This document shows positions 4,516 through 64,000 of a DNA stretch of 64,000 nucleotides, one piece after another; the stretch's first letter is position 1, and each line of letters begins with the position of its first letter. The notes under the pieces were generated by a model that was given only the letters and a program-made list of their open reading frames with translations, was not told the origin of the DNA and did not search any database. Source of the stretch: an uncultured delta proteobacterium (GTDB lineage: Bacteria > Desulfobacterota > Binatia > UBA9968). The stretch spans positions 32,001-96,000 of the forward strand of contig CAWJZV010000011.1 in NCBI GenBank assembly GCA_963847445.1, in the 5' to 3' direction. The position numbers and the translations under genes were made by a program.

Positions 4516-4529
4516 TTTCCAGAGGGCTT

Positions 4530-13658: not shown

Positions 13659-13679
13659 TCTTGTCGCCTATCGGCTCCC

Positions 13680-13778: not shown

Positions 13779-13791
13779 CTCTTGTTCCGAT

Positions 13792-15225: not shown

Positions 15226-15281
15226 GGCAACCAACCTCAGCTTTCTAGAATTGAAAATGGCTGAACGCTTGCCGTTCTGAA

Positions 15282-16603: not shown

Positions 16604-16693
16604 ATTGGAGTAATGGAGTACTGGAGTGTTGGAGTAATGGGTTGCGGATTTCCTACCCAACATTCCATCACTCCAATACTCCACCACTCCAAT
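16604..16693. repeat. Inverted-microsatellite hairpin (8-bp unit TGGAGTNN)
   Basis: ttggagtaatggagtactggagtgttggagtaatgggt-tgcggatttcct-acccaacattccatcactccaatactccaccactccaa. Confidence 0.9.
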
Positions 16694-16714: not shown

Positions 16715-18061
16715 ATGTTTGACGATCTACGAGATTTTCTCGCCCACCTGGAAGACTTGGGGCAGTTGAAGCTGGTCAAAGACGAGGTCAGCGTCAAGCA
16801 CGAGATCGCCGCGGGCATGCGCAAGACCTCGGACATCGAAGGGCCGGCGCTGCTGTTCGAAAACGTGAAAAACTATCCCGACTGGCGCGTGCTCGGCGGT
16901 TTGTTCGCGACGCGCAAACTCGTCGCTCTCGGTCTCGGCGTGCCGCAGGACGAGCTGCTCGAGCGCTATATGACCTTGGAAGACAAGCGCATCCCGCCCG
17001 AGATCGTTGCCACCGGTCCGTGCAAGGAAATCAAATGGACCGGCGAGCAAATCGACCTGACCAAGCTCCCCATCGTCACCCACGCGAGCAAAGACTGCGG
17101 CCCCTACGTCACCATCGGCATGCAGATCGGCAAAGATCCTGACACCGGCATTCGCAATCTTTCCGTCCACCGCATGCTGGTGCTGGGCAAGGACAGGTTA
17201 TCGCTCTGGGCGCCGGCCGATCACCATCTCGGCCGGATGATTTTGAAGGCCGAGGAAAATGGCAAGGGATTGCCGGTCGCCACCGCGGTGGGCGTGGAGC
17301 CGTCGATCGTCGTCGCGTCGCAAGCGCGGGTGCCCTACGGCATCGACGAATTTCACGTCGCCGGCGGCCTGCGCGGCGGCGCGGTGAAGCTGGTGAAATG
17401 CGAAACCATCGATGTCGAAGTGCCGGCCATGGCGGAGGTGATCATCGAAGGCGTGACGATCCCCGGCGAGCGCGTGCCGGACGGTCCTTACGGCGAGTAT
17501 CCCGGCTGTTATAGCGACGCCAAGCAGGCGCCGGTGTTGCAGGTGACCGCGATCACCATGCGCAAGCAGCCGATCTGGCAGACCGCGCTCACCGGCATGC
17601 CGGTGACGGAAAACCACACGCTGATCGAATACGGCAACGCCGCGGTGGTCCATCGTGAAGTGAAGAAGATCGTGCCGGAAGTCAAAGGCGTCAACATGAC
17701 GCCGGGCGGGACGTTTCGCCATCACGTCGTGGTGGCGATCAAGAAGCGCGCGGAGAACGAAGGGCGCAACGTCATTCTCGCGCTGTTGTCCATGGGCATC
17801 GGTTTGAAGCAAGTGATCGTCGTCGACGACGACATCGATCCCTTCGATCCGATGCAAGTCGACTGGGCGATGGCGACGCGCTTTCAGGCGGATAAGGATT
17901 TAATCGTCATCCCGCGCATCGCCTGCTCGACCCTCGACCCATCCTGCCCCGAAGCGCGGGTCACCGCGGGCATGGGCATCGACGCCACCGCGCCGTTGAA
18001 AGATCACTGGCGCTTCGAGAAGGTCGAGATCCCCGGCGTCGATAAGGTGAAGTATATTTAG
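16715..18061 (+). CDS. UbiD-family decarboxylase
   Basis: DLRDFL, GPALLFENV, THASKDCGPY, NLSVHR, DGPYGEYPG, VVDDDID, RFQADKD, GIDATAP. Confidence 0.93.
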   Translation: MFDDLRDFLAHLEDLGQLKLVKDEVSVKHEIAAGMRKTSDIEGPALLFENVKNYPDWRVLGGLFATRKLVALGLGVPQDELLERYMTLEDKRIPPEIVATGPCKEIKWTGEQIDLTKLPIVTHASKDCGPYVTIGMQIGKDPDTGIRNLSVHRMLVLGKDRLSLWAPADHHLGRMILKAEENGKGLPVATAVGVEPSIVVASQARVPYGIDEFHVAGGLRGGAVKLVKCETIDVEVPAMAEVIIEGVTIPGERVPDGPYGEYPGCYSDAKQAPVLQVTAITMRKQPIWQTALTGMPVTENHTLIEYGNAAVVHREVKKIVPEVKGVNMTPGGTFRHHVVVAIKKRAENEGRNVILALLSMGIGLKQVIVVDDDIDPFDPMQVDWAMATRFQADKDLIVIPRIACSTLDPSCPEARVTAGMGIDATAPLKDHWRFEKVEIPGVDKVKYI

Positions 18062-19102: not shown

Positions 19103-19567
19103 ATGAAAAAAACTATTTCACTTAAAATTAATGGCAGCGAGCGTAGCGCTGAAGTCGAGGCGCGCACGACGCTGCTGGACTTGGTGCGGGAGCAGTTTGG
19201 ACTGACCGGCGCGAAGTTGGGCTGCGACATTCAAGTTTGCGGCGCGTGCACGTTGTTGGTCGATGGCAAGCCGGTGAGCGCGTGTTCGATGTTAGCTGTC
19301 GACGTGGACGGTTGCGCGATCGAGACCGTCGAAGGCTTGAGTAGCAAGGACAAGCTCCATCCGCTTCAGGAAGCGTTCATGGAGTTTGGCGCGCTGCAGT
19401 GCGGTTACTGCACTTCCGGCTTTATTCTCACCGCCAAGGCGTTGCTCGCCGAGTGTCCACAGCCATCCGATCAGCAGATTCGCGATTATCTGGCGGGCAA
19501 CTTCTGCCGCTGCGGTTGTTATCAGGAGATTGTGCAAGCGGTGAAAAACGTTAGGGGTGAGGCGTAA
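19103..19567 (+). CDS. Molybdenum hydroxylase 2x[2Fe-2S] subunit (CoxS-like)
   Basis: GCDIQVCGACT...C; QCGYCTSG; CRC. Confidence 0.94.
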   Translation: MKKTISLKINGSERSAEVEARTTLLDLVREQFGLTGAKLGCDIQVCGACTLLVDGKPVSACSMLAVDVDGCAIETVEGLSSKDKLHPLQEAFMEFGALQCGYCTSGFILTAKALLAECPQPSDQQIRDYLAGNFCRCGCYQEIVQAVKNVRGEA

Positions 19568-19618
19568 GGAGTGAGGGGTTTTCCGGACGACCGAACGCCT
19601 TACTCCTCACCCCTTACG
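19553..19618. repeat. Inverted-microsatellite hairpin (7-bp unit GTRAGGN) overlapping the coxS-like stop
   Basis: ggggtga ggcgtaa ggagtga gggg ... cgcc ttactcc tcacccc ttacg. Confidence 0.8.
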
Positions 19619-19655: not shown

Positions 19656-22030
19656 ATGGAACCCACTGAAATCGGCAAATCCTATCGCCGGCTCGATTAC
19701 GAAACCAAGGTGACCGGACGGGCGCAGTACTTGGCGGATATGAGCGTGCCGGGGATGTTGCATGGCAAGATTTTGCGCAGCCCCTACCCGCATGCGCGGA
19801 TCACGCGCATCGACGCGACCAAGGCGGAGAAAGTTCCCGGTGTCATGGCGGTGCTGACACGCGATGACATTTTGCACGACCAAGGCATCGAGCCGTTTTA
19901 CGGGCCGGTGTTCAAGGATCAGACCATCGTCGCGACGGAGAAGGTGCGCCATGTCGGCGATCCGGTGGCGGCGGTGGCGGCATTGACCGTCGATGCCGCT
20001 GAAGCGGCGCTCAAATTAATCGAAGTCGATTATGAGGAGCTGCCGGCGGTGCTCAACATTGACGACGCGCTCAAGGCCGGCGCGATGCTGGTTCACGACT
20101 CGGTCAAGCTGCCGGCTTCCGGTTTCGCCGATCTCGCCGATTTGAAACCCATCGACGGCACTAACCTTTGCACCCACTTCCGCCTCAATCGCGGCGACAT
20201 CGACAAAGGTTTCGCCGACGCGGATCAGGTTTTCGAAGATACCTTCACGCTGCCGGCGACGCAGCATTGTTTTCTCGAGACCCACGCCTGCATCGCGTCC
20301 GTCGAGCCCGGCGGACGCATCACGGTCTGGGCGACGACGCAGAATCCGTTCGTGGTGCGCACCCAGCTGGCGAATATTTTCAAAGTTCCAGTGGCAAAGG
20401 TGCGCGTGATCGTGCCCTACCTCGGCGGCGGTTACGGCGGCAAAGTCTATCCCAAGGTCGAACCGATCACTGTGGCGTTGTCGCAGAAAGCCGGCCGGCC
20501 GGTGCGCTTGGTGCTTTCCCGCGAAGAAGTTTTTTACACCATCACCAAGCATGCGGCGGTGATCCGCATGAAGACCGGCGTGAAAAAGGATGGCACGCTG
20601 ATCGCGCGCGAGTGCGAGATCCATCTCGACACCGGCGCCTACGCCGAGATCGGCCCGCGGGTGGCGAAAAAATCCGGCTACACGGCGGCGGGACCGTATA
20701 AAATTCCCAACCTCAAGATCGATTCCTATTCGGTCTACACCAACAAGCCGCCGGCCGGCGCGTTTCGCGGCTTCGGCGTATCGCAATCGGCATGGGCGGT
20801 GGAGTCGCAGATGGACATCATCGCCGCGGCGCTCAATATGGACCCGGTGGAGCTGCGCAAGCACAACGGCTACAACGAGGGCGATAAGTTCGTCACCGAA
20901 GAGACGCTGCGCGCGGTGGGATTGAAAGAGTGTATTGATGAAGTGGCGAAGTCGATCGGGCTGGGATTCAGCAGGATAGAGATTTCAAAAGTAGGGGCGT
21001 ATTGCCATACGCCCGTGCGGTTCAAGAGCCTGCCCTGAGTCCGTCGAAGGGTTCAACCGCAGGGAACTTGCGGCGCGGCAAAGGGTTGGCGTGCATGATC
21101 AAGGCGACGATTACGCCGTCGATTTCCTGCGCGGTGGTGAAGCTGAACGAAGACGCAAGCCTATCTATATATAGCGGGACCGTGGAGATGGGGCAGGGGT
21201 CGGAGACCGTGCTGGCGCAGATCGCCGGCAAGGAGTTGGGTATTCCGATGCCGACCATTCAAGTGCTCGGCGTCGACACCGACGTGGTGCCGTATGATTT
21301 GACCACTTCGTCGAGCCGTTCGACCTTTCACATGGGCAAGGCGGTGCAGCTGGCCGCCCAGGATATCAAGCGCCAACTCAAGCAGATCGTGGTCAACGAA
21401 TACGACGTGCCGGAAGACAAAATCGATTTCGCCGACGGCAGGATTCGTCTGCCGGAAGCGCAGCTCGACTATGCCGAGGTGATGTTCAAGCGCTTTGGCA
21501 TGCAGGGTGGCACCTTGGTCGGCGAAGGGCAGGTGAAGACTTCGACCAAAGACGAGTTCGGCGAAAAGAGCACTTCGGCGTTTTGGTTTCTCGCCGCCGG
21601 CGCCGCCGAAGTGGAAGTCGACATCGACACCGGCAAATTCAAATTATTGAAATACGCCAGCGCCGTCGATGTCGGCAAGGCGCTCAATCCGCTCGGCTGC
21701 CAACAGCAGTTGGCCGGCGCGGCGATCACCGGCATGGGCCAGGCGATGTTCGAGGAGATCGCCTACGATAACGGCCAACTGATCAATCCCAATTTAGTCG
21801 ATTATGTCCTGCCTTCGCTGGGCGACATGCCTTTGGTCATAGATTCGATCGCCGTCGAAATGCCGGACCGCAACGGCCCCTTCGGCGCCAAGGGCATCGG
21901 CGAGAGCGCGCTGATCCCGGTCGCTCCCGCCATCGCCAACGCGATCTACGACGCCGTCGGTGTGCGCATCAAGGATCTGCCGATCAAGGCGGAAAAGATT
22001 TTTCTTGCGTTGGCAGACGGCAAAGCGTAG
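19656..22030 (+). CDS. Xanthine-dehydrogenase-family molybdopterin subunit (CoxL-like); frameshift near 20960 in a REP-containing linker
   Basis: KVTGRAQY, LGGGYGGK, GAFRGFG, EMGQGSET, SSSRST, GAKGIGE; two ORF halves. Confidence 0.92.
20991..21051. repeat. Two palindromic repeat units inside the CDS: GTAG-REP and an AGCCTGCCCTGAG..GTCGAAGGG unit
   Basis: GTAG-GGGCGTAT-TGCC-ATACGCCC (20991-21014). Unit 21027-21051 resembles the reverse complement of intergenic 61444-61469. Confidence 0.7.
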
Positions 22031-23500: not shown

Positions 23501-24901
23501 ATGATCGGGCGTAAAAAGAGCTTTGCAACTTCGATACTTGCCTATGTATTGGCACTATGGGCGGCGACTCGGCCACTGTTGCCCTAGCCGCTGAGATTCA
23601 GATGCAGATTCAGGCTGTACCGGGAGCTCAAGCGTCGCCATCGCCGACCGGAAAACTGCTGACCATTGAAGACGCGGTGCGGATCGGTTTGGAAAATCAT
23701 CCGAGGATCAAATCGGCCAATGAACGTGTCTTGTCCCAGCAGGCGATCCTCGGCCAGCAGATGGCCGCGTATTATCCGACGATTAGTTTGAGCAATCAGT
23801 ATGAAACCGGGCAAAGCACCACGATCGGCAATGAGCGCGCCAGTGAAGCTTACTCGAGCCAATTTCGCTATGACCACACGCTTTATAATTTCGGCAAACG
23901 GGAAGGCAACGTGCAAGCATCGCGGGAGACCTTGGGCGCGGTCCAACAAGACTATGCGACCACCAATCAGGACATCATTCTTGCGATAAAGCAGGCCTAT
24001 TATGTCTACTTGGGGGCCCAAGCGCTCGTCAACGTGCGCCAGGATACTGTGCGCAGCCGTGAGCTGCTGGTGCGCCAGGCGCGGGGATTTTTCGAAGTGG
24101 GAACGCGGGCCAAGATCGATGTTGCGCGCGCGGAAGCCAACCTTTACACGGCTCAGGCTGACCTCATCGCCGCCGAGAATGCGCGTCAAAATCGCCTGGG
24201 TGACGTCTGCGCAACGCCATGGGATCGCCACGCTTGCCCGAACAGCTGGTGGCCGAGGACTCTCCCGAAGTGGAGCTTTCGATGAATCTCGCCGGAGCGC
24301 GCAACATCGCCTACGACACGCGCACGGAGCTGAAAAGTCTTCGAGGCGCTACGGCGGGCTTCGGACCAGCTCATCGCCACGGCACGGCGCGGCCATCTGC
24401 CTGATGTGATCTTCGATGCCAGTTGGGGGCGCGCGCCATTCGAGCGGTGATGTGGATCAAAGAAACACCTTTCCGCTGCGCGCCAATTGGTCGGTGGGGC
24501 TAAGCCTTAACATTCCGATTTTCGACGGCTTCCGCACGACGCAAAGAGTCGAAGAGACTTTGCACAACTATTACGACGTAAAAGCCCGGGAAGAGGAGCG
24601 CCGGCAGCTGATTGCCCTGGAGGTCGAGCAGTTTTATCTTAGAGTGGTGGAGACCCAGGAGCGCATCAGAGCCAATGAGTCGGCGGCCAAGGCGTCCAAG
24701 GAGAACCTCGATCTCGCCCAAGGCCGCTACCAAGTCGGCGTCGGTTCGATCATCGAAGTGACCGATGCCGAGACCCTTTACACCGACGCGCAAACCACGT
24801 ATGTACGCAGCGTTTATGAATATAAGATTGCCGACGCGCAGCTGGCGCGCGCCATGGGCGATACCCGGGTCGCTGTATTGAAACAGAACTCGATCAAATA
24901 G
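23501..24901 (+). CDS. TolC-family outer-membrane efflux protein (frameshifted)
   Basis: LTIEDAVRIGLENHP, KQAYY, IPIFDGF, RYQVGVGSIIEVTDA. Confidence 0.88.
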
Positions 24902-26223: not shown

Positions 26224-29200
26224 ATGAACATTTCGGCAATATTCATACGCCGTCCGGTAACCACCACGCTGATCATGATCGGGATTCTGATCTTCGGTAG
26301 TTTGGGTTACAAGTCGCTGCCGGTAAGCGATCTTCCGACGGTGGATTTTCCGACCATTACGGTCAACGCCACTCTGCCCGGGGCAAGCGCCGAAACCATG
26401 GCATCGGGGGTGGCAACGCCGCTCGAAAAAAACTTCTCGACCATTGCCGGCCTCGATTCCATGAGTTCGACCAGCAGTTTGGGCCGGACGCAAATAACTC
26501 TGCAGTTTAGTTTGAGCCGCAACGTCGATGCCGCGGCTCAAGACGTGCAGGCGATGATCGCCCGTTCGGCGCGCGACCTGCCGCCCAATATGCCGACTCC
26601 GCCATCTTACCGGAAGGTCAATCCGGCGAACAATTCCATTTTGCTATTGGCGTTGACCTCGCCGACACCTGCCTTTGTCGACCGTCGATGAATTTGCCCA
26701 GACGATCTTAGCGCAGCGGATCTCGATGGTGAGCGGCGTCGCCCAGGTCGATGTTATCGGCTCGCAAAAGTACGCGGTTCGGATTCAGCTGGATCCCAAT
26801 CAGCTGGCCGCCCGCCAGGTTGGCATCGACGATGTGGTCGCCGCGGTGCTGCGCGGCAACGTCGACCTGCCGGTGGGAACCTTGAATGCCCCCACCCGCG
26901 CTTACACGTTAGTTTCAGACGCGCAGCTGACCAACGCGCGCAGCCTATCAGCCGATGGTCGTCACCTATCGCAACGGCGCGGCTGTGCGCATTCAAGACG
27001 TCGGCACCGCGATCGATAGCGTAGAGAACACCAGAGTCGGCAGCTGGTTCAAAGATAAAAGCGCCGTCATCCTCGGAATACAGCGGCAACCGGGCGCCAA
27101 CGTTGTCGAAGTCGTCGATGCCGTCAAGGATATTTTGCCGGGGTTGCGTGCGCAAATTCCGCAGTCGATCAATTTGGAGGTCTTTTTCGACCGCACCCAG
27201 TCGATTCGGGAATCGGTGCACGACGTGCAATTGACCATGATCGGCACGATCTTTCTGGTCATCCTCGTCATCTTCCTGTTTCTGCGCAATGTGTCCGCCA
27301 CGATTATTCCGAGCTTGGCCCTGCCGATGTCGATCATCGGCACGTTTGCCGTAATGTATCTGCTCGATTACAGCCTGGACAACCTGTCGCTGATGGCGCT
27401 GACCCTGGCTGTTGGTTTCGTCGTCGACGACGCCATCGTCGTTCTCGAAAACATCGTCCGCCATATGGAGTTGGGAGAGTCAGCCCTACGAAGCTGCGGT
27501 CAAAGGCGCCCAGGAAATCGGCTTTACGATCGTCACGATGACGATATCGTTGGTGAGCGTTTTCATCCCGGTGCTGTTTATGAGCGGCATGCTCGGACGA
27601 ATTCTGCGGGAATTTTCCGTCACTATCTGCGTCGCGATTCTGGTTTCGGGGTTCATCTCGTTAAGTTTAACTCCCATGCTCGCCAGCCGTTACCTCCGTC
27701 CTGCGCATAATCAGAAGCATGGCTGGTTGTATCATTTCCTCGGCCGCGGTTTGGACGCGCATGAATAATGGCTATGGAAGTTCACTCGGCTGGGTGATGC
27801 GCCACCACGTCACGACTATGGTGGCCTCGCTGCTGGTATTGGTTGCGACCGGTCTATATGTTTGGCTTGGTGCCCAAGGGATTTATTCCGAGCGAAGATA
27901 CCGGTCAACTGTTGATCAACACCGAGGCGGCGCAAGGCGTTTCCTATCGAACAAATGGTCGGATACCAGCAGCAGCTGGCCGCCATCGTCGCCAAGGATC
28001 CCAATGTCGAGTCGTTTTTCTCCAGCGTCGGCGTTGGCGGTGTGGGACTCACCGGCAATACCGGCCGTATTTTTATGAAACTCAAGTCGCGCTCAGAGCG
28101 GCCGGCGGTCTGCTCCGAGAGGGCATGGGGTAAATCCTGCCAGCCACTCAATGCGGATCAGCTGATTCGAGAATTACGACCCAAGCTGGCACGTGTGCCG
28201 GGTATTCGCGTTTCATTGCAGAACCCGCCGGTGATCCGTGTCGGCGGACGACTGAGCCGCAGTCTTTACCAGTTTACCCTGCAGAGTCCGGACGCAGCGG
28301 AACTTTACCGCAACGCCGCGTTATTCGAAGAGAAGATCAAGAGCGTTGCCGGACTTTCAAGATGTCGGCAGCGATTTGCAGCTGAAGAATCCGCAGTTGC
28401 AGGTCGTGATTGACCGCGACAAGATGGCGACCATGGGGATTACGGCGCAAGGAATTTCGCCACGGCAGGTCGAAGAAGCTTTCTGGAACGCTTATGCGAC
28501 GCGGCAAGTCTCGACGATCAATACACCCAACAACCAATACCAGGTGATTTTGGAACTGGATCCGAAATTTCAAAACGACCCATCGGCGCTATCGATGCTC
28601 TATATACGCTCGACTACCGGCCAAGCCGCGACGGCGCAACCGATGGTTCCTTTAGGTTCTCTGGCGACCCTCAAGTATACTGTGGGACCGCTTACGGTTA
28701 ATCACTCCGGCCAGCTCCCTTCGGTGACCATCTCTTTTAACTTGCGCGAGGGGGTGGCGCTTAGGAGACGGCGGTGGCGACCGATCAACAAGCTTGCGCG
28801 TGACAATCTGCCGGGTACGATCAGCACCACTTTTCAAGGCACGGCTCAGGAATTTCAATCGTCCCTCAAGAGCTTATGGGTTCTCTTAGCTCTCGCGGTG
28901 TTCGTCGTTTACTTGGTCTTGGGGATTCTCTATGAGAGCTTTATCCATCCGCTAACGATACTTTCCGGTCTACCGTCCGCCGGTCTCGGCGCTTTGATCG
29001 CGCTTTATCTTTTTAGCATGGACCTGAGTATTTATGCCTTCGTCGGCTTGATCATGCTCATCGGCATCGTCAAGAAAAACGCCATCATGATGATCGACTT
29101 TGCTCTCGACGCCCAGCGCAACGACGGTAAAGCGCCGGCCCAGGCGATCTACGAAGGCGCTTTGGTGCGCTTTCGGCCGATCATGATGACCACCATGGCG

Positions 29201-29470
29201 GCGATCGTCGGTGCGGTGCCCATCGCGGTCGGTTGGGGCGCCGGCGCCGAAGCGCGCCAGCCGCTTGGCATCGCGGTGGTCGGCGGCTTGGTGATTTCGC
29301 AGATCCTCACGCTCTACATCACTCCGGTGGTCTATCTTTACATGGAGAAGTTATTGACGCTTGCAACCGGGCTGCCGGCGCGCTTGCGCGGCAAATCCGC
29401 CGCTGTGCCTGCCGCCGGCTTGACGCCGAATCTCGGCGTCGACGATCCCACCGCGCATAAAGTTTCCTAG
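26224..29470 (+). CDS. RND efflux permease (MdtB/MdtC-like; several frameshifts)
   Basis: FIRRPVTT, LPTVDFPTI, GFVVDDAIVVLENI, GIVKKNAIMMIDFA, RFRPIMMTT. Confidence 0.93.
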
Positions 29471-36102: not shown

Positions 36103-36410
36103 CTCACCACGAAGTACTTCATGATCTTGCACTCGCCTACAGAGCATGAAAATGGTTGGCATTCCCAGAACATGATCCCCCTCAATTCGTCATTCCCGCG
36201 CACGCGGGAATCCAGGTGACGGACAGAGTCCGTCATACCGTTGAAAAACGGTATCCAGGTGATGATGGGTCTGGATACCCGCTTTCGCGGGTATGACGGA
36301 GCCCCGCAGGCTCTTTGTTGTGCATATCATCCCCTCACATGTATTTTTCGAAGGAGGACACGAAGGAGAGACTTAACTTCCGGGCCCTCGTGTCCTTCGG
36401 GGTGAAAAAC
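36103..36410. repeat. Mosaic of nested palindromic repeats between convergent genes
   Basis: cgtcattcccgcgcacgcgggaatccag ... ctggatacccgctttcgcgggtatgacg (36188-36297), plus aggacacgaagg / ccctcgtgtcctt arms. Confidence 0.75.
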
Positions 36411-37237: not shown

Positions 37238-38023
37238 CTAACTACGCCAGGCGGTGATCCACACCGTGAGCGCGATTAGGCTCACCAGCACCGCGTAGAT
37301 TTTCCGTAGGATCGATGTGGTTATTTCTCGATGCACCCTTGCACCGGCCAGCGCGCTTAACGCGGCGGCCGTGACGACGACGCTTGCAGCCAGCAGCGGC
37401 ACTTGGTTGGTTGCCAATTTGCCGATGAATCCCAAGGTGCCATTCATCAAGCCGATGACCAGTGTGCTGCCGATAGCGACTCGGGTGGGCACCTTGAAGG
37501 CGTATATGAGCAGCGGCACGAAAGCAAAATTACCCGCTCCGAGAAAGCCGATCATGACTCCTGCCGAGAGGGAAGCAGCGGCTAGTGGGAGCTTGGCGAC
37601 TGGGAGATTTTGCGCCGATGCTTCGTTGCCGCTGCGGTAGGGCATTGGCAGCGCCATCGCCAGCCCGGCAGTTGTGGTCATCAATCCGAAAAGAACCAGC
37701 AGAAATCCTTCGGATACCCATTTAGACGCCACGGCGCCGATCAACGCACCGGCCGCGGATGCGACTCCAGCTGTGACGGTGATGCCATGGTGAACTTGTC
37801 CCCTGCGCAGATGCGCCCAGCCGCCGAACAGGGCGGAGAAGAACACTTGGCTACTGACCACTGCGGCCACCGTCTTGGCATCGAGCGGCGCCCAACCGAA
37901 AAGCGGCGGTATATAATAAAGCAGCGGAAACATCACGACGCCGCCGCCGACACCGAGCAGCCCGGCGGCAAACCCACCCAGGGCGCCCAACGACGCCAGG
38001 AGTGCGATCAGCGAGAAAGTCAT
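37238..38023 (-). CDS. TauE/SafE (sulfite exporter) family membrane protein
   Basis: GLLGVGGG, second repeat GFLGAG, AIGSTL; overlaps the mqnP stop by 4 nt (ATGA). Confidence 0.85.
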   Translation of the reverse strand: MTFSLIALLASLGALGGFAAGLLGVGGGVVMFPLLYYIPPLFGWAPLDAKTVAAVVSSQVFFSALFGGWAHLRRGQVHHGITVTAGVASAAGALIGAVASKWVSEGFLLVLFGLMTTTAGLAMALPMPYRSGNEASAQNLPVAKLPLAAASLSAGVMIGFLGAGNFAFVPLLIYAFKVPTRVAIGSTLVIGLMNGTLGFIGKLATNQVPLLAASVVVTAAALSALAGARVHREITTSILRKIYAVLVSLIALTVWITAWRS

Positions 38024-38919
38024 GCGCCGATCCCGTTTTTCGAGATCAGCAGGATATCGGCGAGGGTAAAAAGAAAATAGCCTAGGCTGACATAGGCGTT
38101 GAGGTCGAAGAATGCCTTATCAATGCGCGATAGATCGGTAGCCGTGACGATGCGATGCTCCCAGACTAAAACCGCGGTGACGGCCAGAAACCCGAGCCAG
38201 TAAAGAGCCCCCATGGCAGCCGCGCTGCCGACCAGGGCGAGAAACAAAACCGTGCCGCAATGAAAGGCGCTCGACAATCTTAGCGCGCCGGCGACGCCGA
38301 ATCGCACTGGGATCGAATGGAGGCCGATCTTGCCGTCAAACTCCCGGTCTTGCAGCGAGTAGATGATGTCGAAGCCGGCGAGCCAAAAGACCACGGCGAG
38401 ACCAAGGTAAATGGGGATTTGCAGTTCGGCGATGTCGAACGGCGGGCGCGCGACGGCCAACCAAGCGCCGATCGGAGCGATGGCCAGGGCGAGGCCGAGA
38501 AACAGATGGGCCGCCCAAGTAAACCTCTTGGTGAGCGAGTAAAAGAACACAATCGCCAAAGCGACGGGCGATAGGACGAAACAAACCCAGTTGAGCTGAT
38601 AGGCGGCGAAGACAAAGAGTGCCGAAGCCAGGGCTGTGAGCAGCATGGCCTCGCCGACCTTCACTTTGCCCTGGGGCATCTCCCAGTTCTTCGTGCGCGG
38701 ATTCAAGGCGTCAAACTGGCGATCCGCGACGCGGTTAAATCCCATCGCCGCGGTGCGCGCGCCGACCATGGCGACCAGAATCCAAAGCAAACTGCGCAGC
38801 GTCACCGGATGTCGCGGCCAAGCCAGGGCGAGCGACGCCATGGCAAAAGGGAGCGCAAAGACGGTGTGAGAAAAGCGCACAAGGCTGCCATAGTTGGCGA
38901 TTTTGGATTTTAGTCGCAT
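38020..38919 (-). CDS. mqnP: UbiA-family prenyltransferase, futalosine pathway (MqnP-like)
   Basis: HTVFALPFA, ARTAAMGFNR..DRQFD..NPRT, YSLTKRFT, GFDIIYSLQD..FD. Confidence 0.88.
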   Translation of the reverse strand: MRLKSKIANYGSLVRFSHTVFALPFAMASLALAWPRHPVTLRSLLWILVAMVGARTAAMGFNRVADRQFDALNPRTKNWEMPQGKVKVGEAMLLTALASALFVFAAYQLNWVCFVLSPVALAIVFFYSLTKRFTWAAHLFLGLALAIAPIGAWLAVARPPFDIAELQIPIYLGLAVVFWLAGFDIIYSLQDREFDGKIGLHSIPVRFGVAGALRLSSAFHCGTVLFLALVGSAAAMGALYWLGFLAVTAVLVWEHRIVTATDLSRIDKAFFDLNAYVSLGYFLFTLADILLISKNGIGA

Positions 38920-38927
38920 CTGAATAA

Positions 38928-38960
38928 CGTGTTCGTTGCTCGTGATCGTGTTCGTATTCG
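38928..38960. repeat. Microsatellite arm (6-bp unit CGTGNT), downstream flank of four-helix-bundle gene 1
   Basis: cgtgtt cgttgct cgtgat cgtgtt cgtatt cg; inverted relative to 39385-39419. Confidence 0.8.
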
Positions 38961-38973
38961 GCGGGGACCGGAG

Positions 38974-39330
38974 CTAGCGTCGTCCCAAGGATTGGGCGAG
39001 CCTTGTGAGCATTTGGCCTACTCGGTCATAACTCGATCGCAGCTCGGGGTAAATATCATTTTGAAGATGACCGAGATCACGGGCTAACAGGAGCTGATAA
39101 CCAACTTCCGCCGCTGAACCTCTGGCAATGCCGACGAACTGCCTAAACTCCCGGCTATTGAGGCGCATCGATCCTTCGACTAAGTTCGACCCAACGGAAG
39201 TCGCCGCGCGTCGCATCTGCGAGACGAGATTAAAGCTCTCTTCTTTTGGGAACTTTGCAGTGATTTTGTAGACCTTCAGCGCAAGTTCATGAGCGAGTTT
39301 AAAAACATCCAGATCTTCGACCGATTTCAT
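38974..39330 (-). CDS. Four-helix bundle protein (23S rRNA IVP / Avd-like family)
   Basis: EDLDVFKLA..L...Y.IT.KFPKEE.F.LVSQMRRAATSV.SN..EG..R...EF..F..IARGS..E; 118 aa; GGAG RBS. Confidence 0.93.
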   Translation of the reverse strand: MKSVEDLDVFKLAHELALKVYKITAKFPKEESFNLVSQMRRAATSVGSNLVEGSMRLNSREFRQFVGIARGSAAEVGYQLLLARDLGHLQNDIYPELRSSYDRVGQMLTRLAQSLGRR

Positions 39331-39384
39331 AGCCTGCTCTCCATCAAATCTAGTCTTGTTCAGCAAAAAAGTGAAACTTTCGTC

Positions 39385-39419
39385 CGAGAACGAGCACGAG
39401 CCACGAGCACGAGTCACGA
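39385..39419. repeat. Microsatellite arm (6-bp unit CGAGCA), upstream flank of four-helix-bundle gene 1, overlapping the mqnL stop
   Basis: cgagaa cgagca cgagcca cgagca cgagtca cga. Confidence 0.8.
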
Positions 39420-40859
39420 AATCCCCAACTTTGCCCATATCGAATCGATGTAGTTTTTGGTTTTCTCGTCCATGACGATGGCGTCGGGCCATTCCCGCTC
39501 GAAACCCTCGCTGCGCCACTTGCGCGTGGCATCGAGACCGAGCTTAGAGCCATAGCCGAGCACCGGCGCGGCATGATCGAGGACGTCGACCGGGCCGTCG
39601 GAGAAGATCGTATCGCGTTTGGGTTCGATATTATTACCGACCACCCAGGTGACTTCGGCAAGGTCGTGCACGTTGACATCGTGATCGACGACGATCAGGG
39701 TTTTGGTGAACATCATCTGGCCCAGGCCCCAGAGCGCGTGCATGACTTTGCGCCCGTGGGCCGGGTACTCTTTCTTGATCGAGATGATCGCCAGGTTATG
39801 AAACACCCCATGCACGGGCAGATTCATGTCGACGATCTCGGGCAGGGTGACGCGCAAGAGCGGCAGAAACAGTCGCTCGGTGGCTTTGCCGAGATAGGCG
39901 TCTTCCATCGGCGGACGGCCGACGATGGTGGTCGGATAAATCGGATTTTTCCGATGGGTGATGCAGGTGACGTGAAACACCGGATAATCATCGGCCAGCG
40001 AGTAGAAACCCGTGTGATCGCCGAAGGGGCCTTCACGCCGCAGCGGTTCCGCTGGATCGACGTAGCCTTCGATGACGATGTCCGAGTTGGCCGGCACTTC
40101 GATGTCGACGGTTAGGCATTTAATTAACTCGACGCCTTTCTTGCGCAAGAAGCCAGTGAAGAGGATCTCATCGATCTGCGGCGGCAGCGGCGCGGTGGCG
40201 GCGTAGATCATCGCCGGATCGCCGCCGAGGCAGACCGCCAGCTCCAACTTACCCTTGTTTTCTTTCTGTTGCTGAAAATGTCTGGCGCCGACTTTGTGCA
40301 GATGCCAGTGCATGCCGGTGGTGCGCCGATCGAACACCTGCATGCGATAGAGCCCGACGTTTCTCGTGCCTTTCACGGCATCTTTGGAAAAAACCATCGG
40401 CAGAGTGATAAACGGCCCGGCGTCGCCGGGCCAGCAAGTCAGCACCGGCAGCAGGTTAAGATCAGGATCGCGATTGACGACTTCCTGGCACGCCGCTTCT
40501 TTGACCATCTTGGGCGGGATACCCGCCAGTTTCACCAGTTCGCCGAGTAGCTGGAGCTTGTCTTTGAATGACTTGGGCGGGCGGGTTTGGATTAGCTTGG
40601 TGATTTCGGCGGCGATCTCCTCGATGTCCTTCACACCCAACGCCAACGCCATCCTCTTGGCCGAACCGAAGGCGTTGATCAACACCGGAATGTTTTTGCC
40701 GACGACGTTTTCAAAGAGCAACGCCGGCCCGGCGGATTTCATCACGCGATCGGCGATCTCGGTGATTTCCAACTCGGCCTTGACCGGGTGGGATATCCGC
40801 TTCAACTCACCCTCGCGCTCCAAAACTTGAAGGAAATCTTGCAGGCTGTTATATGCCAT
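39414..40859 (-). CDS. mqnL: Menaquinone biosynthesis decarboxylase (UbiD family, MqnL-like)
   Basis: LEITEIADR, CWPGDAGPFITLP, NVGLYRMQ, GMHWH.HK.G, EGPFGDHTGFY, ALWGLGQMMF; adjacent to mqnP. Confidence 0.9.
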   Translation of the reverse strand: MAYNSLQDFLQVLEREGELKRISHPVKAELEITEIADRVMKSAGPALLFENVVGKNIPVLINAFGSAKRMALALGVKDIEEIAAEITKLIQTRPPKSFKDKLQLLGELVKLAGIPPKMVKEAACQEVVNRDPDLNLLPVLTCWPGDAGPFITLPMVFSKDAVKGTRNVGLYRMQVFDRRTTGMHWHLHKVGARHFQQQKENKGKLELAVCLGGDPAMIYAATAPLPPQIDEILFTGFLRKKGVELIKCLTVDIEVPANSDIVIEGYVDPAEPLRREGPFGDHTGFYSLADDYPVFHVTCITHRKNPIYPTTIVGRPPMEDAYLGKATERLFLPLLRVTLPEIVDMNLPVHGVFHNLAIISIKKEYPAHGRKVMHALWGLGQMMFTKTLIVVDHDVNVHDLAEVTWVVGNNIEPKRDTIFSDGPVDVLDHAAPVLGYGSKLGLDATRKWRSEGFEREWPDAIVMDEKTKNYIDSIWAKLGIS

Positions 40860-40981
40860 AGCTGAACTCGAATTCTCAATGAAACGCAATAATCCGCTAA
40901 AAAGCAAGCCGATTGCACGATGTCCGATGAACATGCCAGCGAGGCTAGTCACGGAGTTCGCCGGTAAAAAACGATTAGGCC

Positions 40982-43045
40982 ATGGGCCAGCGATCAGATC
41001 GATTGGCTGACAGGACGCGGGCCCAACGCCGTCGCGAACCGACCGCGGCGGCGGATCGCCTCGCGCCCAAGACAACCGCCCTGTGGTTCAGTACGATCTT
41101 TGCTATCGCGCTGCTGCTGCGATTTGTTCACCTTTGGCAGATCGAGGCGATGCCGCTCTTCTACAACCTCGCCGGCGACGGCCGGACTTACGACGAGTGG
41201 GCGCAGCGAATCGCCGCCGGTGACTGGCTTGGCAGCGGGGTATTTTACCAAGCGCCGTTATATCCCTATTTTCTCGCTGTCTGGCAATTTGCTTTTGGCC
41301 ACAACCTCTGGCTGATTCGTTTCTTGCAGATCCTCCTCGGGGCGTTGTCTTGCGCCTCGCTCTTTCTTGTCGGTGATAAATTGTTTTCTCGTTCGGCGGG
41401 CATCGCCGCTGGCTTGGTGCTGGCTATCTATGCACCGGCGATATTTTTCGACGCATTGATTGAAAAAAGCATTCTTGACTTGACGTTGCTCTGCCTGATG
41501 CTCTGTCTCCTGGTGAATGTCGGTCGAACCCATTCCCTGATGAAATGGCTCGGCGTTGGTTCGCTGCTTGGACTTCTGGGCCTGTCGCGCGAGAATGCCC
41601 TGATCTTGGCACCGCTTGTCGCCATCTGGATATTTGTTGAGCTTCCTCGCGAAGCGCCGGCGCTGCGCGCGCGCTGGCTCGGCTGCTTCCTGGCTGGTTT
41701 ATTATTGATTCTGGTCCCCGTCGGAATCCGCAACTTGATCGTTGGCGGCGAGTTCAAGCTCACCACCTCGCAGCTCGGGCCGAACTTCTTTATCGGCAAT
41801 AACCCGGTTGCCGACGGAACCTACGGATCGGTTAGGCAACTCATCAAAGAGGTTCAGCTGGAAGGTCCGGACGCTAAGCGCCTAGCTGAAAGAGCGAGCG
41901 GCCGTTCACTGACGCCAGGCGAGGTTTCCAGTTACTGGTTGCGCCAGTCGATCGCTTTTATCGAAGCCCAACCGGGTCAGTGGCTAAGCCTCTTGGCGCG
42001 GAAGTGGTTGTTGGTTTGGCATGCGCGCGAGATCGAGGACTCCGATGATTTTTACATCTACCGCCAGTTCTCGACGCCGCTGGCGCTTTTGGCGTGGCTC
42101 GCTCACTTCGGTGTACTTGCGCCGCTTGCCGCTGCCGGGATGTTTTTTACCTGGCGCGAGTGGCGCCGGCTGTGGCTCCTCCATGCGATGATCTTGGCGC
42201 TCGCCGGCAGTGTGGCGCTCTTTTTTGTCTTTGGCCGATATCGTTACCCGCTGGTGCCGTTTTAGCGCTGTTTGCCGGGGTAGCGATTGTCGAGTTTGTC
42301 CGGCTGTTGCGCCAAAAGAATTGGTCCCAAGCGATCAAGGCATCGATAGTTCTGGCAATCACAGCCGGGTTGGTGAACTGGCCGCTTGGCGGTCCATCCG
42401 GGCCGGGCGCCGCTGGCTATAATAACTTGGCCAATGCTTATTCGAAGCAGGGTAAGGTCGATGCAGCGATCGGCGCCGCCTTGCGCGCCCTGGAGATTCA
42501 ACCGGATTACGGAGTAGCCCACTATAACCTTGGCAATCTCTACATGCAGCAGGGCCGATTCGATCTAGCGCGGCGCCATTTTGAAGACTCGCTCCGGTTA
42601 CTGCCCAACTATGCCGAAGCCCATAGCAACTATGGCCAACTTCTCGCCGAAGGCGGCGATCTCGCGACCGGCATGGAACATTTCCAAAGGGCGATCAGGC
42701 TCGATCCGTCGGTCGGCCGGGCGCAGCTCAATCTTGGCGTCGCCCTGGCAAAAAACGGTCGGATGGACGAGGCGGTGGCGCCGCTGCAACGGGCCGCTGC
42801 GCTTAGTCCAGAGGCCGCCCGAGCCGATTTATTATTTGGGCAGCGTCTACGCGGCGCAGAATCGTTACGCCGAGGCGGAGGCGGCGTTTACCCAGGCACT
42901 GCAACGGCGCGGCGATTTTGCGCCGGCGCACCAGAGTTTGGCGCAGCTATTCGCGCTCCAAGGAAAACAGGCGCGGGCGATGCAGCATCATCAGGAAGCA
43001 GTTCGCTTGATGCAGCAAAGTGGCGCGAATTCGCCGGCAAGATAG
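40982..43045 (+). CDS. GT-C/PMT-like membrane glycosyltransferase with C-terminal TPRs (frameshifted)
   Basis: D..TYDEWA, FYQAPLYPYFLA, NFFIGNNP.ADG, RYRYP, then multiple TPRs (AHYNLGN, AHSNYG, AQLNLG). Confidence 0.78.
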
Positions 43046-56356: not shown

Positions 56357-56414
56357 AATGGAGAATGGAGAATCCAGAGGGAAAATTTTCCATTTTCCAT
56401 TTTCCATTATCCAT
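56357..56414. repeat. Inverted-microsatellite hairpin (7-bp unit AATGGAN)
   Basis: aatggagaatggagaat-ccagagggaaa-attttccattttccattttccattatccat; same unit as 2900-2971. Confidence 0.85.
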
Positions 56415-57938: not shown

Positions 57939-58832
57939 GTGTCCACCCGCATTAGCATTGCTCAGGTCAACCCAAGACTTGGCGACCTCCAGGCCAACCT
58001 GGCGCTGTATGAAGAACGCATCGGCCACGCCGTCGCTGACAAAGCTGAGCTGCTCTTATTCCCCGAGTTGAGTCTCACCGGCTACATGCTGCGTGATACC
58101 GTGCCGGCCGTGGCGTTGAAGCTCGACGCACCGGAGATCAAGCAGCTCATGACGCTTAGCCGCAAACTGTCCTTCATCGCCGGTCTGGTGGAGGAGAGCC
58201 CCGATCACAGGTTTTTCAACTCGGCGGTCTATTTCGAAGATGGCGAGATTCGCCATGTGCACCGTAAAGTCTATCTGCCGACCTATGGCATGTTCGACGA
58301 GCAACGCTACTTCGCCCGCGGCGACCGGGTGCGCGCCTTCGACAGCAAATTCGGCCGTATGGCGCTGTTGATCTGTGAAGACCTCTGGCATCCCTCGACG
58401 ATTTACTTAGCTGCCTTGGATGGCGCCCTGGCGGTGCTCTGTCCGTCGGCGAGCCCACTGCGCGGCATTGTCGACCAGCAGAGCCAGGACGACAACGCGC
58501 GCTACTGGGAAATGCTCAATCGCGTCTATGCCGAGACCTACAGCCTGTTCATGATCTACGGCAACCGCTGCGGTTTTGAAGACGGCGTCGGCTTCTGGGG
58601 CGGTTCCGAGATCCTCGATCCCTTCGGCGAGCGGCTCGCTAAAGCGCGCTACTATGACGAGGACTTCATCGCCGTCGACGCTAGCTTCGAAGCGGTGCGG
58701 CGCAAACGCACCATGTCGCCGCTGTTGCGCGACGAAGATTTGGATCTGACGATCAACGAGCTGATGCGCATTCGCGAGCGGCCGGGAGCGAATAGCGTTC
58801 AAACGTTCAAAGGTTCCAAAGGTTCAAGGTAG
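57939..58832 (+). CDS. Nitrilase-family carbon-nitrogen hydrolase (glutaminase partner of NadE)
   Basis: [33 protein letters not shown] (E-K-C triad); directly upstream of nadE. Confidence 0.9.
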
Positions 58833-58906: not shown

Positions 58907-59728
58907 ATGATTCAGATCCCGACCAACACTGCTTTGCTGCGCCAGATTCTCGTCGCATTTATTCGCAATGAAGTGCGCAAGACCGGGCTGGCGCGCGTCG
59001 TCGTCGGTCTTTCCGGCGGAGTGGATTCGGCGCTGAGCGCGATGTTGGCGGCTGAGGCCTTAGGTCCGCAAAACGTATTGGGCGTCTTGATGCCTTACAA
59101 GAGCTCCAACCCGGATAGCCAGGCCCATGCCGAGATGGTCGTGCAAAAAAGCGGTATCGAGTCGCTGTTGGTCGACATCACGCCGCAGATCGACGGATAT
59201 TTTGCCGGCTTCCCCGATGCCGACGCGCGCCGGCGCGGCAACAAGATGGCGCGCGAACGCATGACGATTCTTTACGACCAATCGATGCGCTGGAGCGCTT
59301 TAGTTATCGGCACCAGCAACAAGACCGAACTTTTGCTGGGCTATGGCACGCTGCACGGCGACATGGCTTCGGCGATCAATCCGCTCGGCGATCTCTACAA
59401 GACCCAAGTGTGGGCGCTCTCCGAGGCGATCGGCGTGCCTCAGGTCATCGTCCAGAAAGAGCCGTCGGCGGATCTGTGGAGCGGCCAGACCGACGAGGGT
59501 GAGTTGGGTTTTACCTACCGCGAAGTAGACAAGCTGCTCTATTTGATGGTCGACCAGCGTTACACCAAAGCCGAGCTGGTCGCCGCCGGCTTCCCCGAAC
59601 GGTTCATCGACGACATCGCCGCGCGCATCATGAATTCCCAATTCAAGCGGCGCCTGCCGGTGATCGCCAAGGTTTCGCAACGCACCATCGACCGCGACTT
59701 CCGCTATTCGCGGGATTGGGGGAAGTGA
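58907..59728 (+). CDS. nadE: NAD+ synthetase
   Basis: [24 protein letters not shown]...[29 protein letters not shown]. Confidence 0.96.
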
Positions 59729-59772
59729 GATAGAGATAGAGATAGAGATAGAGACTGGAGAAAGAGACTTGG
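59727..59772. repeat. Microsatellite arm (6-bp unit TAGAGA), upstream flank of four-helix-bundle gene 2, overlapping the nadE stop
   Basis: gaga tagaga tagaga tagaga tagaga ctggaga aagaga cttgg. Confidence 0.9.
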
Positions 59773-59808
59773 AGGGCGAGGCGGCGAGCGAGCCAAGTTG
59801 TGGAAGGA

Positions 59809-60153
59809 ATGTTTAAGTTTTAACGGCTTGACGTGTGGATCAAGTCCATCGCCCTTTACGATCAGATTACATCACTTTCGTTGTCCATCCATCAACGAGA
59901 TCAGTACTCACTTGGAGATCAGATTCGCCGAGCATCATTGTCTATATCCACGAACATTGCTGAAGGAACAGGTCGAGATAGCCCAAGGCAATCGAGATAT
60001 TTCTATAACATTGCCAAAGGTTCCGTCTACGAGGTCGTGAGCTTGCTCCATGTTTGTAAGAAGCAAAATTGCATGCAAGACGATCAATTTCAGAGATTAT
60101 ATGTTCAATGTGATGAAATTGCCCGCATGATAACCGGCCTGATGAAGCGCTAA
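59809..60153 (+). CDS. Four-helix bundle protein (23S rRNA IVP / Avd-like); in-frame TAA at codon 5 (pseudogene or error; alternative GTG start 59833)
   Basis: MFKF*RLDVWIKSI.LYD.I...L..QYSLGDQIRRASLSISTNIAEGTGR....YFYNIAKGSVYE; more AT-rich than flanking genes. Confidence 0.88.
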
Positions 60154-60174
60154 CCGTGCATTCATAGATCCGGT

Positions 60175-60208
60175 TCTGGTCTCAAATCTCTATCTCAAGT
60201 CTCTATCT
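60175..60208. repeat. Microsatellite arm (TCTCTA-type), downstream flank of four-helix-bundle gene 2
   Basis: tctggtctcaaatctctatctcaagtctctatct; reverse complement agatagagacttgagatagagatttgagaccaga matches the left-arm unit. Confidence 0.85.
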
Positions 60209-62075: not shown

Positions 62076-62099
62076 CCGCGGATTACACAGTCGCTGCTC

Positions 62100-63255: not shown

Positions 63256-64000
<745 letters not shown>

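Follow-up and report, generated by a model that had tools for sequence, protein, structure and literature searches.

Four-helix-bundle genes enclosed by inverted arrays of short tandem units as probable mobile cassettes between operon genes

The DNA analyzed here (the window) is a 64,000-nucleotide (nt) stretch from an uncultured delta proteobacterium of the Binatia (Desulfobacterota, UBA9968; assembly GCA_963847445.1, contig CAWJZV010000011.1, positions 32,001 to 96,000); positions given below are counted from its first letter. At 38928–39419, a gene encoding a PF05635/TIGR02436-family four-helix-bundle protein lies between a decarboxylase gene and a prenyltransferase gene and is enclosed by two arms of short tandem units in inverted orientation. 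We refer to the two arms and the gene together as cassette 1. In the direction of transcription, the locus contains the following features.

39414–41075, minus strand: upstream neighbor, a UbiD-family menaquinone biosynthesis decarboxylase of the MqnL type (longest open reading frame, ORF)
39385–39419, sense = minus strand: 5′ arm of cassette 1, ~5.5 tandem 6/7-nt units, TCGTGN on the sense strand
39331–39384, minus strand: 5′ untranslated stretch of cassette 1, as read from the sequence
38974–39330 (stop codon included), minus strand: four-helix-bundle protein gene, 118 amino acids, with PF05635 and TIGR02436 profile matches
38928–38960: 3′ arm of cassette 1 in sense orientation, ~5.3 units that are inverted and complementary to those of the 5′ arm
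38020–38919, minus strand: downstream neighbor, a UbiA-type prenyltransferase, MqnP-like (TIGR01475 match)

The cassette 1 protein matches PF05635 with an E value of 5.9e-36 (123.4 bits, cut-off 33.8) and TIGR02436 with 111.4 bits (cut-off 24). Tandem Repeats Finder detected arrays of period 6 in both flanks, 5.3 copies of CGTGTT at 38928–38960 and 5.5 copies of CGAGCA at 39385–39419, which bears out the first-pass annotation of this DNA, made from the letters alone, that about five tandem 6-nt units and their reverse complement flank a 118-residue ORF. As an inverted repeat, 38928–38954 pairs with 39385–39411 over 27 nt (81% complementary). The TGA stop of the decarboxylase (39414–39416) is inside the 5′ arm, an overlap that had also been noted, and a gap of 8 nt separates the 3′ arm from the start codon of the UbiA-type gene. 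A Shine-Dalgarno–like GGAGAG (plus-strand 39337–39342) lies ahead of the cassette ATG (39330–39328). The neighbors had been called mqnL and mqnP. The former name holds, the decarboxylase scoring 656.3 bits with TIGR03701 (cut-off 495.9); since this match begins at residue 80, the true start is probably inside the longest ORF, 39414–41075. The prenyltransferase exceeds the cut-off of the UbiA-like model TIGR01475 (300.7 versus 180.8 bits) but falls below all three MqnP models NF041584-6 (best 279.6 bits versus 430), so that “mqnP” is no more than a plausible name for the 38020–38919 gene.

The same design recurs at 59727–60208 with a different repeat unit, as the first reading of the sequence had recognized. 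This second copy (cassette 2) consists of the following parts.

59727–59771: 5′ arm, GAGATA-type units ×6.7 (Tandem Repeats Finder span 59727–59767)
59809–60153, plus strand: gene for the second four-helix-bundle protein (ATG at 59809; frame open from the GTG at 59833)
60180–60208: 3′ arm, complement of the GAGATA-type 5′ arm

The 5′ arm of cassette 2 begins within the TGA stop of an NAD synthase gene, and the 3′ arm ends 5 nt ahead of the ATG (60214) of a TP_methylase (RsmI-like) gene. The arms form a 26-nt inverted repeat that is 88% complementary. The open frame at 59833–60153 encodes 106 residues that match PF05635 (E 6.6e-29, 100.7 bits) and TIGR02436 (103.8 bits) and are 29% identical to the cassette 1 protein. 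The ATG at 59809 opens only four codons before an in-frame TAA (59821–59823, codon 5), and the gene would be either a fresh pseudogene or one that encodes a shortened protein. The G+C content of cassette 2 is 0.44 to 0.48, versus 0.56 to 0.64 in its flanks. Because of this foreign composition and the in-frame TAA, the second copy looks younger than cassette 1 and is perhaps broken.

When flank complementarity was calculated for 76 ORFs of the window, the two PF05635 genes ranked first and second (scores of 37 and 29; next 23; median 15). A Pfam scan of 75 window ORFs detected PF05635 in none other than the two cassette genes. Within the cassette, Pfam returned PF05635 and a weak bAvd match, and no transposase domain.

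To see how general the arrangement is, we used 79 loci obtained by scanning species-representative genomes with a query alignment that comprised the two window proteins plus 21 relatives (individual loci are cited below by L numbers). Represented among them are Binatia, Thermodesulfobacteriota, Nitrospirota, Acidobacteriota, Omnitrophota, Patescibacteria, a Rickettsiales bin, Phycisphaerae, and other taxa. The flank score was defined by aligning 165 nt around the gene start to the reverse complement of 195 nt around the gene end, and the 74 loci with full flanks were scored. A score of at least 28 was reached by 47 of these 74 family genes, by 4 of the 522 other ORFs in these loci, and by 3 of 643 random 350-nt segments (Mann-Whitney P = 9e-38); three of the four passing control ORFs adjoin arms-only hairpins, described below, in the L033/L034 operon. 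Tandem arrays of period 5 to 10 were present in both flanks at 58 of 75 family loci versus 43 of 492 control ORFs. The family arrays have a period of 6 or 7 and a median of 4.25 copies. Inverted repeats are thus enriched around members of the family relative to control genes, which was the check that the first-pass annotation had proposed.

The unit itself varies by cassette group (CGTGNT, CCGTGT, CAGTGT, AAGTGT, TAGTGT, CAGAGC, TCAGGGG, and others), and further paralogues in the flanks of the loci bring AAGGATA and GAGTTTT. Of 47 arm pairs, one of them tied, 38 of the remaining 46 have an excess of G over C in the first (5′) arm. Host contexts are diverse and include menaquinone, NAD synthase, cas, ribonucleotide reductase, polysaccharide, and conjugation operons as well as ribosomal RNA (rRNA). 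At 27 of 46 loci, the stop codon of the upstream same-strand ORF lies from −6 to +30 nt from the start of the arm.

A tblastn search found relatives in 26 plasmid records, mostly cyanobacterial. Six of eight examined loci on finished plasmids had a flank score of at least 28; in the remaining two, the order is arm, complement, gene, complement. On plasmid AZO_p2 of Azospirillum lipoferum 4B (L085), the ORF lies between tandem 7-mer arms inside a 23S rRNA gene (RF02541, 2529 bits). L085 is a true 23S rRNA intervening sequence (IVS) of the same build as the operon cassettes. No 23S similarity was found in the window or in the 79 loci, and an Rfam scan of the window detected no rRNA. On finished cyanobacterial plasmids, antisense copies were seen between the two ribonucleotide reductase subunit genes (L081, 1401–1899) and between two toxin-secretion genes (L083, 1344–1892).

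As a separate feature of the arms, units of 6 and 7 nt frequently alternate, giving a 13-nt super-period (39390–39419 and 60180–60208 in the window; also L002, L006, and L047). Tandem Repeats Finder reports period 13 in both window cassettes, and the alternation is kept in orthologous cassettes.

Comparison of related loci revealed where the element begins and ends. L028, L032, L033, and L034 have one operon junction in common, with flanks 75 to 95% identical. At that junction, L028 and L032 carry cassette “a” with CCGTGT-type arms, and L033 and L034 carry cassette “b” with TCGTGA-type arms; no DNA alignment is obtained between the two cassettes, whose proteins share 56% identity. The flanks of L028 are nearest to those of L033 (91 to 95%), while its cassette is nearest to that of L032 (90%). 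Homology of the flanks extends up to the upstream stop codon and is taken up again from the downstream ATG. Cassette “a” is also present, 91 to 93% identical, at a second, unrelated junction in L027 and L030. There, homology between the sites extends from the first arm unit, directly after the stop codon, to the last arm unit before the ATG, and the irregular order of 6- and 7-mers in the arms is preserved at both sites. Overall, 18 gene pairs are at least 80% identical at the DNA level; 11 of them occupy the same site and 7 different sites, the latter representing three independent cases.

Filled and empty sites were found on syntenic Nostoc plasmids. The pNPUN02 cassette (TCAGGAG arms) lies opposite TAG-GTT-ATG in pNsp_c, and the pNsp_c cassette (GGGGAAA arms) lies opposite TAA-TTT-ATG in pNPUN02, so that an empty site is a 3-nt spacer. 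Because of the cassette swaps, the site changes, and the filled and empty sites, the arms are to be assigned to the gene and not to the site. These cases show that arms and gene travel as one unit, that cassette lineages each have their own unit sequence, and that a cassette occupies the exact stop-to-start gap of operon genes, or a 23S rRNA helix, with no target duplication. The earlier proposals that arms and gene form one cassette, and that this is a mobile unit with no recognizable transposase and part of a system, are both upheld: homology across sites runs from the first to the last arm unit, filled and empty sites differ by exactly that, and, apart from the weak bAvd match, Pfam gives only PF05635.

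Two further candidates were considered and dropped. In L015 (3650–4950), a type-A four-helix-bundle gene is cut at residue 44 and abuts an AAGGATA-type arm with a fragment of a type-B gene; a HicA/HicB-like pair and three copies of another short repeat follow. The region appears to be a patch of nested or rearranged elements and was not retained as proof of nested insertion, since it is rearranged and both 3′ halves are missing. Cassette-bounded horizontal transfer in L020/L021 was likewise abandoned, the high-identity tract not being bounded by the arms: its upstream end lies ~40 nt inside the preceding gene, and on the downstream side it declines gradually.

We next considered how the gene is expressed and whether it is maintained. 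For pairs in which the synonymous distance (dS) is unsaturated, nonsynonymous and synonymous distances (dN/dS) of the gene are 0.024/0.515, 0.042/0.556, 0.045/0.458, 0.011/0.447, and 0.063/0.357; the four site sets were picked by hand, and L047 rows were excluded (a run of N and a frame change in the gene). On these values, the four-helix-bundle gene is under purifying selection. Among 66 loci with both neighbors called, both neighbors are on the strand of the gene in 44, both on the opposite strand in 2, and mixed in 20, while 285 of 422 adjacent background ORFs are on the same strand; ORFs of the loci were called crudely, as longest frames. A search of both window cassettes for promoter-like and terminator-like sites detected none, nor is there a sigma-70–like promoter in 38700–39700, and both contain a purine-rich ribosome-binding stretch. 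Since the gene is under purifying selection, is oriented with its host operon, lacks signals of its own, and has a ribosome-binding stretch, the pattern points to an ORF that would be expressed through read-through from the host and whose product would matter.

The potential of the arms to pair in RNA was estimated by folding. In both window cassettes, the minimum-free-energy fold and the centroid fold are closed by the arms. The arm duplexes fold with −46.9 and −47.5 kcal/mol, compared to about −21 (SD 3.9) when the 3′ arm is shuffled. The fold of the L085 rRNA IVS also closes on its arms (z = −9.7). In 49 cassettes with a score of at least 28, G-U–compatible mismatches number 45 in the sense transcript versus 24 in the antisense (P = 0.015).

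These observations can be set beside what is published on rRNA IVSs. In Coxiella, RNase III cuts the IVS at a terminal stem of 28 bp; tandem heptamers, variable in number between strains, precede the ORF, which is reported as decaying and probably untranslated; the idea that the IVS ORF is a mobility component is credited there to Ralph and McClelland 1993 (PMC4990558). We consider it likely that the window cassettes are IVS-type mobile cassettes living between operon genes, transcribed by read-through, with arms able to form an RNase III–type stem. The cassette would be a unit of ~0.45 to 0.5 kb comprising a promoterless PF05635 gene with its own ribosome-binding site and two inverted arms of ~30 nt, each of about three to seven tandem units of 6 to 7 nt. 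How it moves and what its protein does we infer as follows. Read-through of the host operon would transcribe the cassette, and the arms would pair in the transcript as a ~35-bp stem with the ORF looped out. By analogy with rRNA IVSs, the stem would be of the type cut by host RNase III; cutting would free a small mRNA and separate the flanking cistrons, making the insertion tolerable. The protein, a relative of the pentameric nucleic-acid–binding Avd ring, may recognize the unit arrays of its own element; it may serve the upkeep or spread of the element, with host enzymes doing the cutting and joining.

Several points weigh against this interpretation or against parts of it. The 79 loci represent one subfamily, picked by two peptide patterns, and come mostly from draft bins. 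The whole cassette 1 transcript folds no better than shuffled sequences (z = −0.35), the wobble bias is modest and could come from strand composition, and cleavage of an mRNA stem is argued by analogy to rRNA IVSs. When the match of an arm to its own partner was compared with that to foreign arms, per unit class, the values were 34.2 versus 31.8 (not significant) in one class and 37.9 versus 32.7 (P = 0.02) and 37.4 versus 31.5 (P = 0.02) in others, own arms being slightly better. Arm complementarity thus comes mostly from the common unit, and recognition of a motif therefore fits as well as pairing does. Two of the eight plasmid copies are antisense to their host operon with arms kept, and the four junction comparisons that were read contain no target duplication. 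The protein has no known catalytic domain, and fusions are uninformative, the only four longer proteins (211 to 222 residues) being probably over-called ORFs. Overall, conservation of the unit in mirror orientation appears better supported than conservation of exact pairing, for which signs of selection are weak. Of the earlier proposal of an IVS-like insert in an mRNA, the architecture is retained (the tandem 7-mer arms of L085, the arm-closed folds), while exact-pairing selection has little behind it and cleavage stays an analogy.

Some of these points fit an element that acts at the DNA level only, in which the arms would be arrayed terminal repeats bound either by the cassette’s own protein or by one of the host, movement would be cut-and-paste or copy-and-paste, and the RNA stem would be a by-product. 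The absence of a transposase-like domain and of target duplications makes this alternative unlikely, and the 44-to-2 sense bias is unexpected under it unless expression of the ORF is needed. The unit sequence is, on the other hand, conserved more than exact arm-to-arm pairing; arms are inherited intact between sites, irregularities included; the strand asymmetry is constant (5′ arm G>C in 38 of 46); and the antisense plasmid copies have arms, all of which suits DNA-level recognition. Paired tandem 7- to 8-mers on opposite strands in Geobacter metallireducens were likewise read as sites bound by protein, “global regulator binding sites” (PMC2700814). Against a DNA-only element, the same architecture in rRNA is processed as RNA (PMC4990558), and the excess of G-U–compatible mismatches in the sense transcript, modest as it is, also speaks for RNA.

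A less probable alternative is that the gene between mqnL and the prenyltransferase has become fixed and domesticated, no longer moves in this genome, encodes a protein useful to the host, and keeps its arms as an intercistronic RNA processing or stability element. L002, L003, L006, L007, and L047 have a cassette at the same decarboxylase-prenyltransferase junction, with arms made of the cassette 1 unit. Their decarboxylases are 71 to 77% identical to that of the window and, in most of these loci, end one to three codons late, at a TGA supplied by the first arm unit. The first-pass annotation had named stable synteny without arms in relatives as an observation that would speak against its proposal; all five relatives at this junction keep the arms. 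By this comparison, the mqnL-junction copy is an old, vertically kept insertion of a family that is mobile as a whole. Being kept in the window and in five other genomes, it could be domesticated, which would count against the cassette interpretation, and purifying selection and a good ribosome-binding site with no promoter of its own are in line with this. Domestication accounts poorly for the changes of site, the replaced cassettes, and the filled versus empty sites seen in the family, for host contexts without a common theme, and for a second window copy with an early in-frame stop and foreign base composition.

Divergence within cassettes and flanks was examined as well. The gene is more alike than its flanks in 10 of 11 same-site pairs, the exception being L021/L024, where the downstream flank is more alike. 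Gene dS is 3 to 14 times below that of the neighbors in L027/L030, L020/L021, and L002/L003, and not in L021/L024. Because the L020/L021 tract is not arm-bounded, the low dS is at least partly due to ordinary recombination, which lowers its value as evidence for cassette movement.

The cassette 1 sequence finds 18,244 clusters at 50% identity (E ≤ 1e-3), annotated only as “four helix bundle protein” or, wrongly, as “S23 ribosomal protein,” and the family is described as a functionally uncharacterized domain within rRNA insertions (PMC11270868). In the motif GxxRxxxSxxxNxxE (PMC3936711), R41, S45, N49, and E52 are invariant in the family alignment with the right spacing, and the first position is Q38. 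For the closest solved relatives, 2gsc and 2rld, five chains each are listed. Searches for look-alikes outside the family in the ESM Atlas returned no usable match, PADLOC assigned no defense family, and phage records contained no match. Likeness of the family to Avd, the accessory protein of diversity-generating retroelements (DGRs), is already in print; Avd and family relatives form pentamers, and Avd binds RNA (PMC10053308; bioRxiv 10.1101/2023.10.23.563531). The relation in fold rests here on profile matches, on sequence matches to 2gsc and 2rld, and on published descriptions.

A retro-mobile element, in which the protein would assist, as Avd does, a reverse transcriptase supplied from another locus and RNA of the cassette would be copied into new sites, is very improbable on these data. 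In its favor are homology to Avd through weak profile matches (Pfam bAvd, E 0.0036; PHROG 3206, E 1.8e-4), the requirement of the DGR reverse transcriptase for Avd, which binds its RNA (bioRxiv 10.1101/2023.10.23.563531), the near-universal sense orientation, and the group II intron domain match in the window, a sign of retroelements in the genome. Against it, the score with the Avd equivalog model NF033474 is 19.8 bits versus a cut-off of 80, and no reverse transcriptase domain was found in the 75 window ORFs. Moreover, an RNA cut by RNase III would lose outer parts of the arms, while copies at new sites keep full arms. Chance or an artefact of metagenome-bin assembly, suggested by the draft metagenome-assembled origin of the window and most loci and by the many split window genes, is refuted by the flank-score controls given above and by the same design in finished plasmids of cultured strains and has a negligible probability.

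In addition to the two cassettes, the window contains at least seven short-loop hairpins with arms of tandem 7- to 9-mers and no gene between them. All are intergenic, and most begin at a stop codon. The seven listed here use none of the units of cassettes 1 and 2.

2900–2972: AATGGAT-type 7-mers, from stop codon to next start codon
4444–4521: ATGGAGTG-type 8-mers
5727–5811: between convergent genes
13678–13784: CGTTCAAGA-type 9-mers
16604–16693: TGGAGTAA-type 8-mers, with a loop motif in common with 4444–4521
19549–19618: overlaps the stop codon of a [2Fe-2S] subunit gene
56357–56414: AATGGAG/ATTTTCC 7-mers

The hairpin at 56357–56414, at a phosphotransferase-nucleotidyltransferase junction, is missing in L006 (29-nt spacer) and in L047 (69 nt, repeat-free). 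In Rfam, no family covers the window hairpins, the sole match in the window being the group II intron domain. Some hairpins share a unit with a cassette of the same locus. L034 has hairpins made of the unit of its own cassette at three successive operon junctions, the first consisting of one arm only, and at one of these junctions, the genes of L033 overlap. L028 has a hairpin of its own cassette’s unit at one junction and hairpins of other units at two. In the first 50 kb of pNPUN02, an ORF-less element with the cassette’s 7-mer in both arms and ~140 nt between them lies 7 kb from the cassette. Arrays of the same unit are mildly enriched in the cassette’s own locus (0.45 versus 0.37; higher in 21 of 37; P = 0.01). 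On this small sample, the arms-only hairpins would fit gene-less relatives of the cassettes.

Other observations concern repeats of the same kind. An identical 15-nt loop motif is present at 4469–4483 and 16639–16653, nowhere else in the window, and in 0 of 87 loci. The GTTCAA-type unit forms the full hairpin at 13678–13784 and occurs in L009 and L015; single arrays of GTTCAA-type 8- to 9-mers at 9044–9072 and 58796–58827 have no inverted partner within 700 nt and may be half hairpins. In L006, the spacer (1794–1829) at the junction orthologous to that of the window hairpin at 56357–56414 contains three partnerless units of GAGACA/GAGATA type, which is the unit type of cassette 2. The 64-kb window encodes three UbiD-family paralogues (13792–15234, 16715–18061, and 39414–41075), two with an arms-only hairpin at one end and the third with cassette 1. 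Extra full hairpins or arm copies of the cassette’s own unit lie beside the gene in L003 (4893–5579), L019 (3779–4321), L008, L038, L080, and L086, in the order arm, complement, gene, complement; arms therefore appear to multiply locally.

A further reading, which we regard as possible but doubtful, is that the protein is the element-encoded specificity factor of an undescribed class of mobile DNA. Its ring would read the tandem units of its own arms, a few in each arm, and would mobilize or maintain cassettes and same-unit hairpins as an autonomous/non-autonomous pair. If true, a single mechanism would cover ORF-bearing and ORF-less rRNA intervening sequences and would extend to cyanobacterial tandem heptamers, the paired “regulator sites” of Geobacter, and the CRISPR “association.” It would also account for a family of >18,000 clusters (50% identity) that has gone without a known function for thirty years.

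Among known systems, the closest to the cassettes is the ORF-bearing 23S rRNA IVS (Coxiella, Leptospira, and L085), which likewise has a PF05635 ORF in the loop of a terminal inverted-repeat stem, tandem heptamers in an arm, sense orientation, and no promoter of its own and has long been suspected to be mobile (PMC4990558). The window cassettes differ in lying between protein-coding cistrons and not within an rRNA helix, and their ORFs, unlike the Coxiella ORF, which is reported as decaying (PMC4990558), have good ribosome-binding sites and show purifying selection. RNase III cutting is established for the rRNA copies only. The Avd protein of DGRs has a homologous four-helix-bundle fold and is an RNA-binding pentameric ring, but no reverse transcriptase family was detected by Pfam at E ≤ 1e-5 in the 75 window ORFs. 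Repeat scans of the cassette regions turned up no long direct repeat, no search having been aimed at a template/variable pair, and there is no known description of Avd genes enclosed by inverted tandem-repeat arms.

The combination of an inverted-repeat–flanked gene and short gene-less intergenic hairpins in the same genome resembles the repetitive extragenic palindromic (REP) sequences, their hairpin-forming doublets (REPINs), and REP-associated tyrosine transposases (RAYTs). RAYTs belong to the HUH tyrosine transposases, and REPs are not known to form tandem arrays. The cassette gene, by contrast, has no HUH (Y1) transposase or known catalytic domain, and many unit families coexist; the link from hairpin to cognate gene rests on a few cases (L034, L028, and pNPUN02). 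With insertion sequences and miniature inverted-repeat transposable elements, the cassettes share terminal inverted repeats of ~28 nt, discrete ends, and gene-less derivatives. They differ in having no transposase and no target-site duplication, in their arrays of 6- to 7-nt units, and in using stop-to-start gaps as sites. Integron cassettes differ in that the arms here are symmetric at both ends and that no integrase family was found in the 75 window ORFs. The short tandemly repeated repetitive sequences of cyanobacteria are comparable, with short tandem units in pairs. The Geobacter metallireducens repeats are similar in consisting of short paired opposite-strand tandem units in gaps, for example, between proB and proA, but in the accessible text of PMC2700814, they appear as sequence features or regulator sites, without a link to four-helix-bundle genes or mobility.

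Genes of this family between cas genes, e.g., cmr3-cmr2, have been read as a functional link to CRISPR (PMC3936711; PMC10910872). The “CRISPR-associated” 23S_rRNA_IVP genes belong to the same family, and on a finished cyanobacterial plasmid, a four-helix-bundle gene lies between cas6 and cas4 (L080, 1285–1966). The diversity of host operons suggests that cas-adjacent copies are ordinary cassette insertions of the kind that land in any operon, and this may explain the recurrent “CRISPR-associated” label.

ORF-bearing rRNA IVSs, their processing by RNase III, and the idea of mobility are already in print (PMC4990558). A literature search, with most subscription journals and supplements outside its reach, returned no description of non-rRNA genes of the family as arm-bounded cassettes and no account of tandem-unit arms as a family rule, of site changes, or of gene-less relatives. 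PF05635/TIGR02436 is a very large family without a function. Viewing its members as arm-bounded cassettes would make the thirty-year puzzle of the nature and spread of rRNA IVSs testable in culturable cyanobacteria and would explain short tandem repeats and intergenic hairpins that have been recorded unexplained in genome papers. It would also warn against taking these genes as functional partners of their neighbors, such as cas genes, and point to DNA movement without a known transposase.

A few other features of the window were recorded. Many genes are broken up into neighboring frames, at 26675–29470, 23557–24901, 7800–8539, 19656–22030, 63256–63998, and 61751–62104. The gene for an AcrB-type pump is in four pieces, and those for an outer-membrane factor, an ABC ATPase, and a molybdopterin subunit are each in two; a ligase-like gene and an RNA-binding protein gene are also split. 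Such breaks suggest either indel errors in the draft assembly or a pseudogene-rich genome. The group II intron domain (Rfam RF00029) lies at 62193–62346 on the plus strand and scores 40.4 versus a gathering threshold of 40, with no reverse-transcriptase ORF found nearby. At 36229–36300, an inverted repeat that is not of the tandem-unit type extends over 30 nt (80% complementary) around a 12-nt loop and contains small hairpins within its arms.

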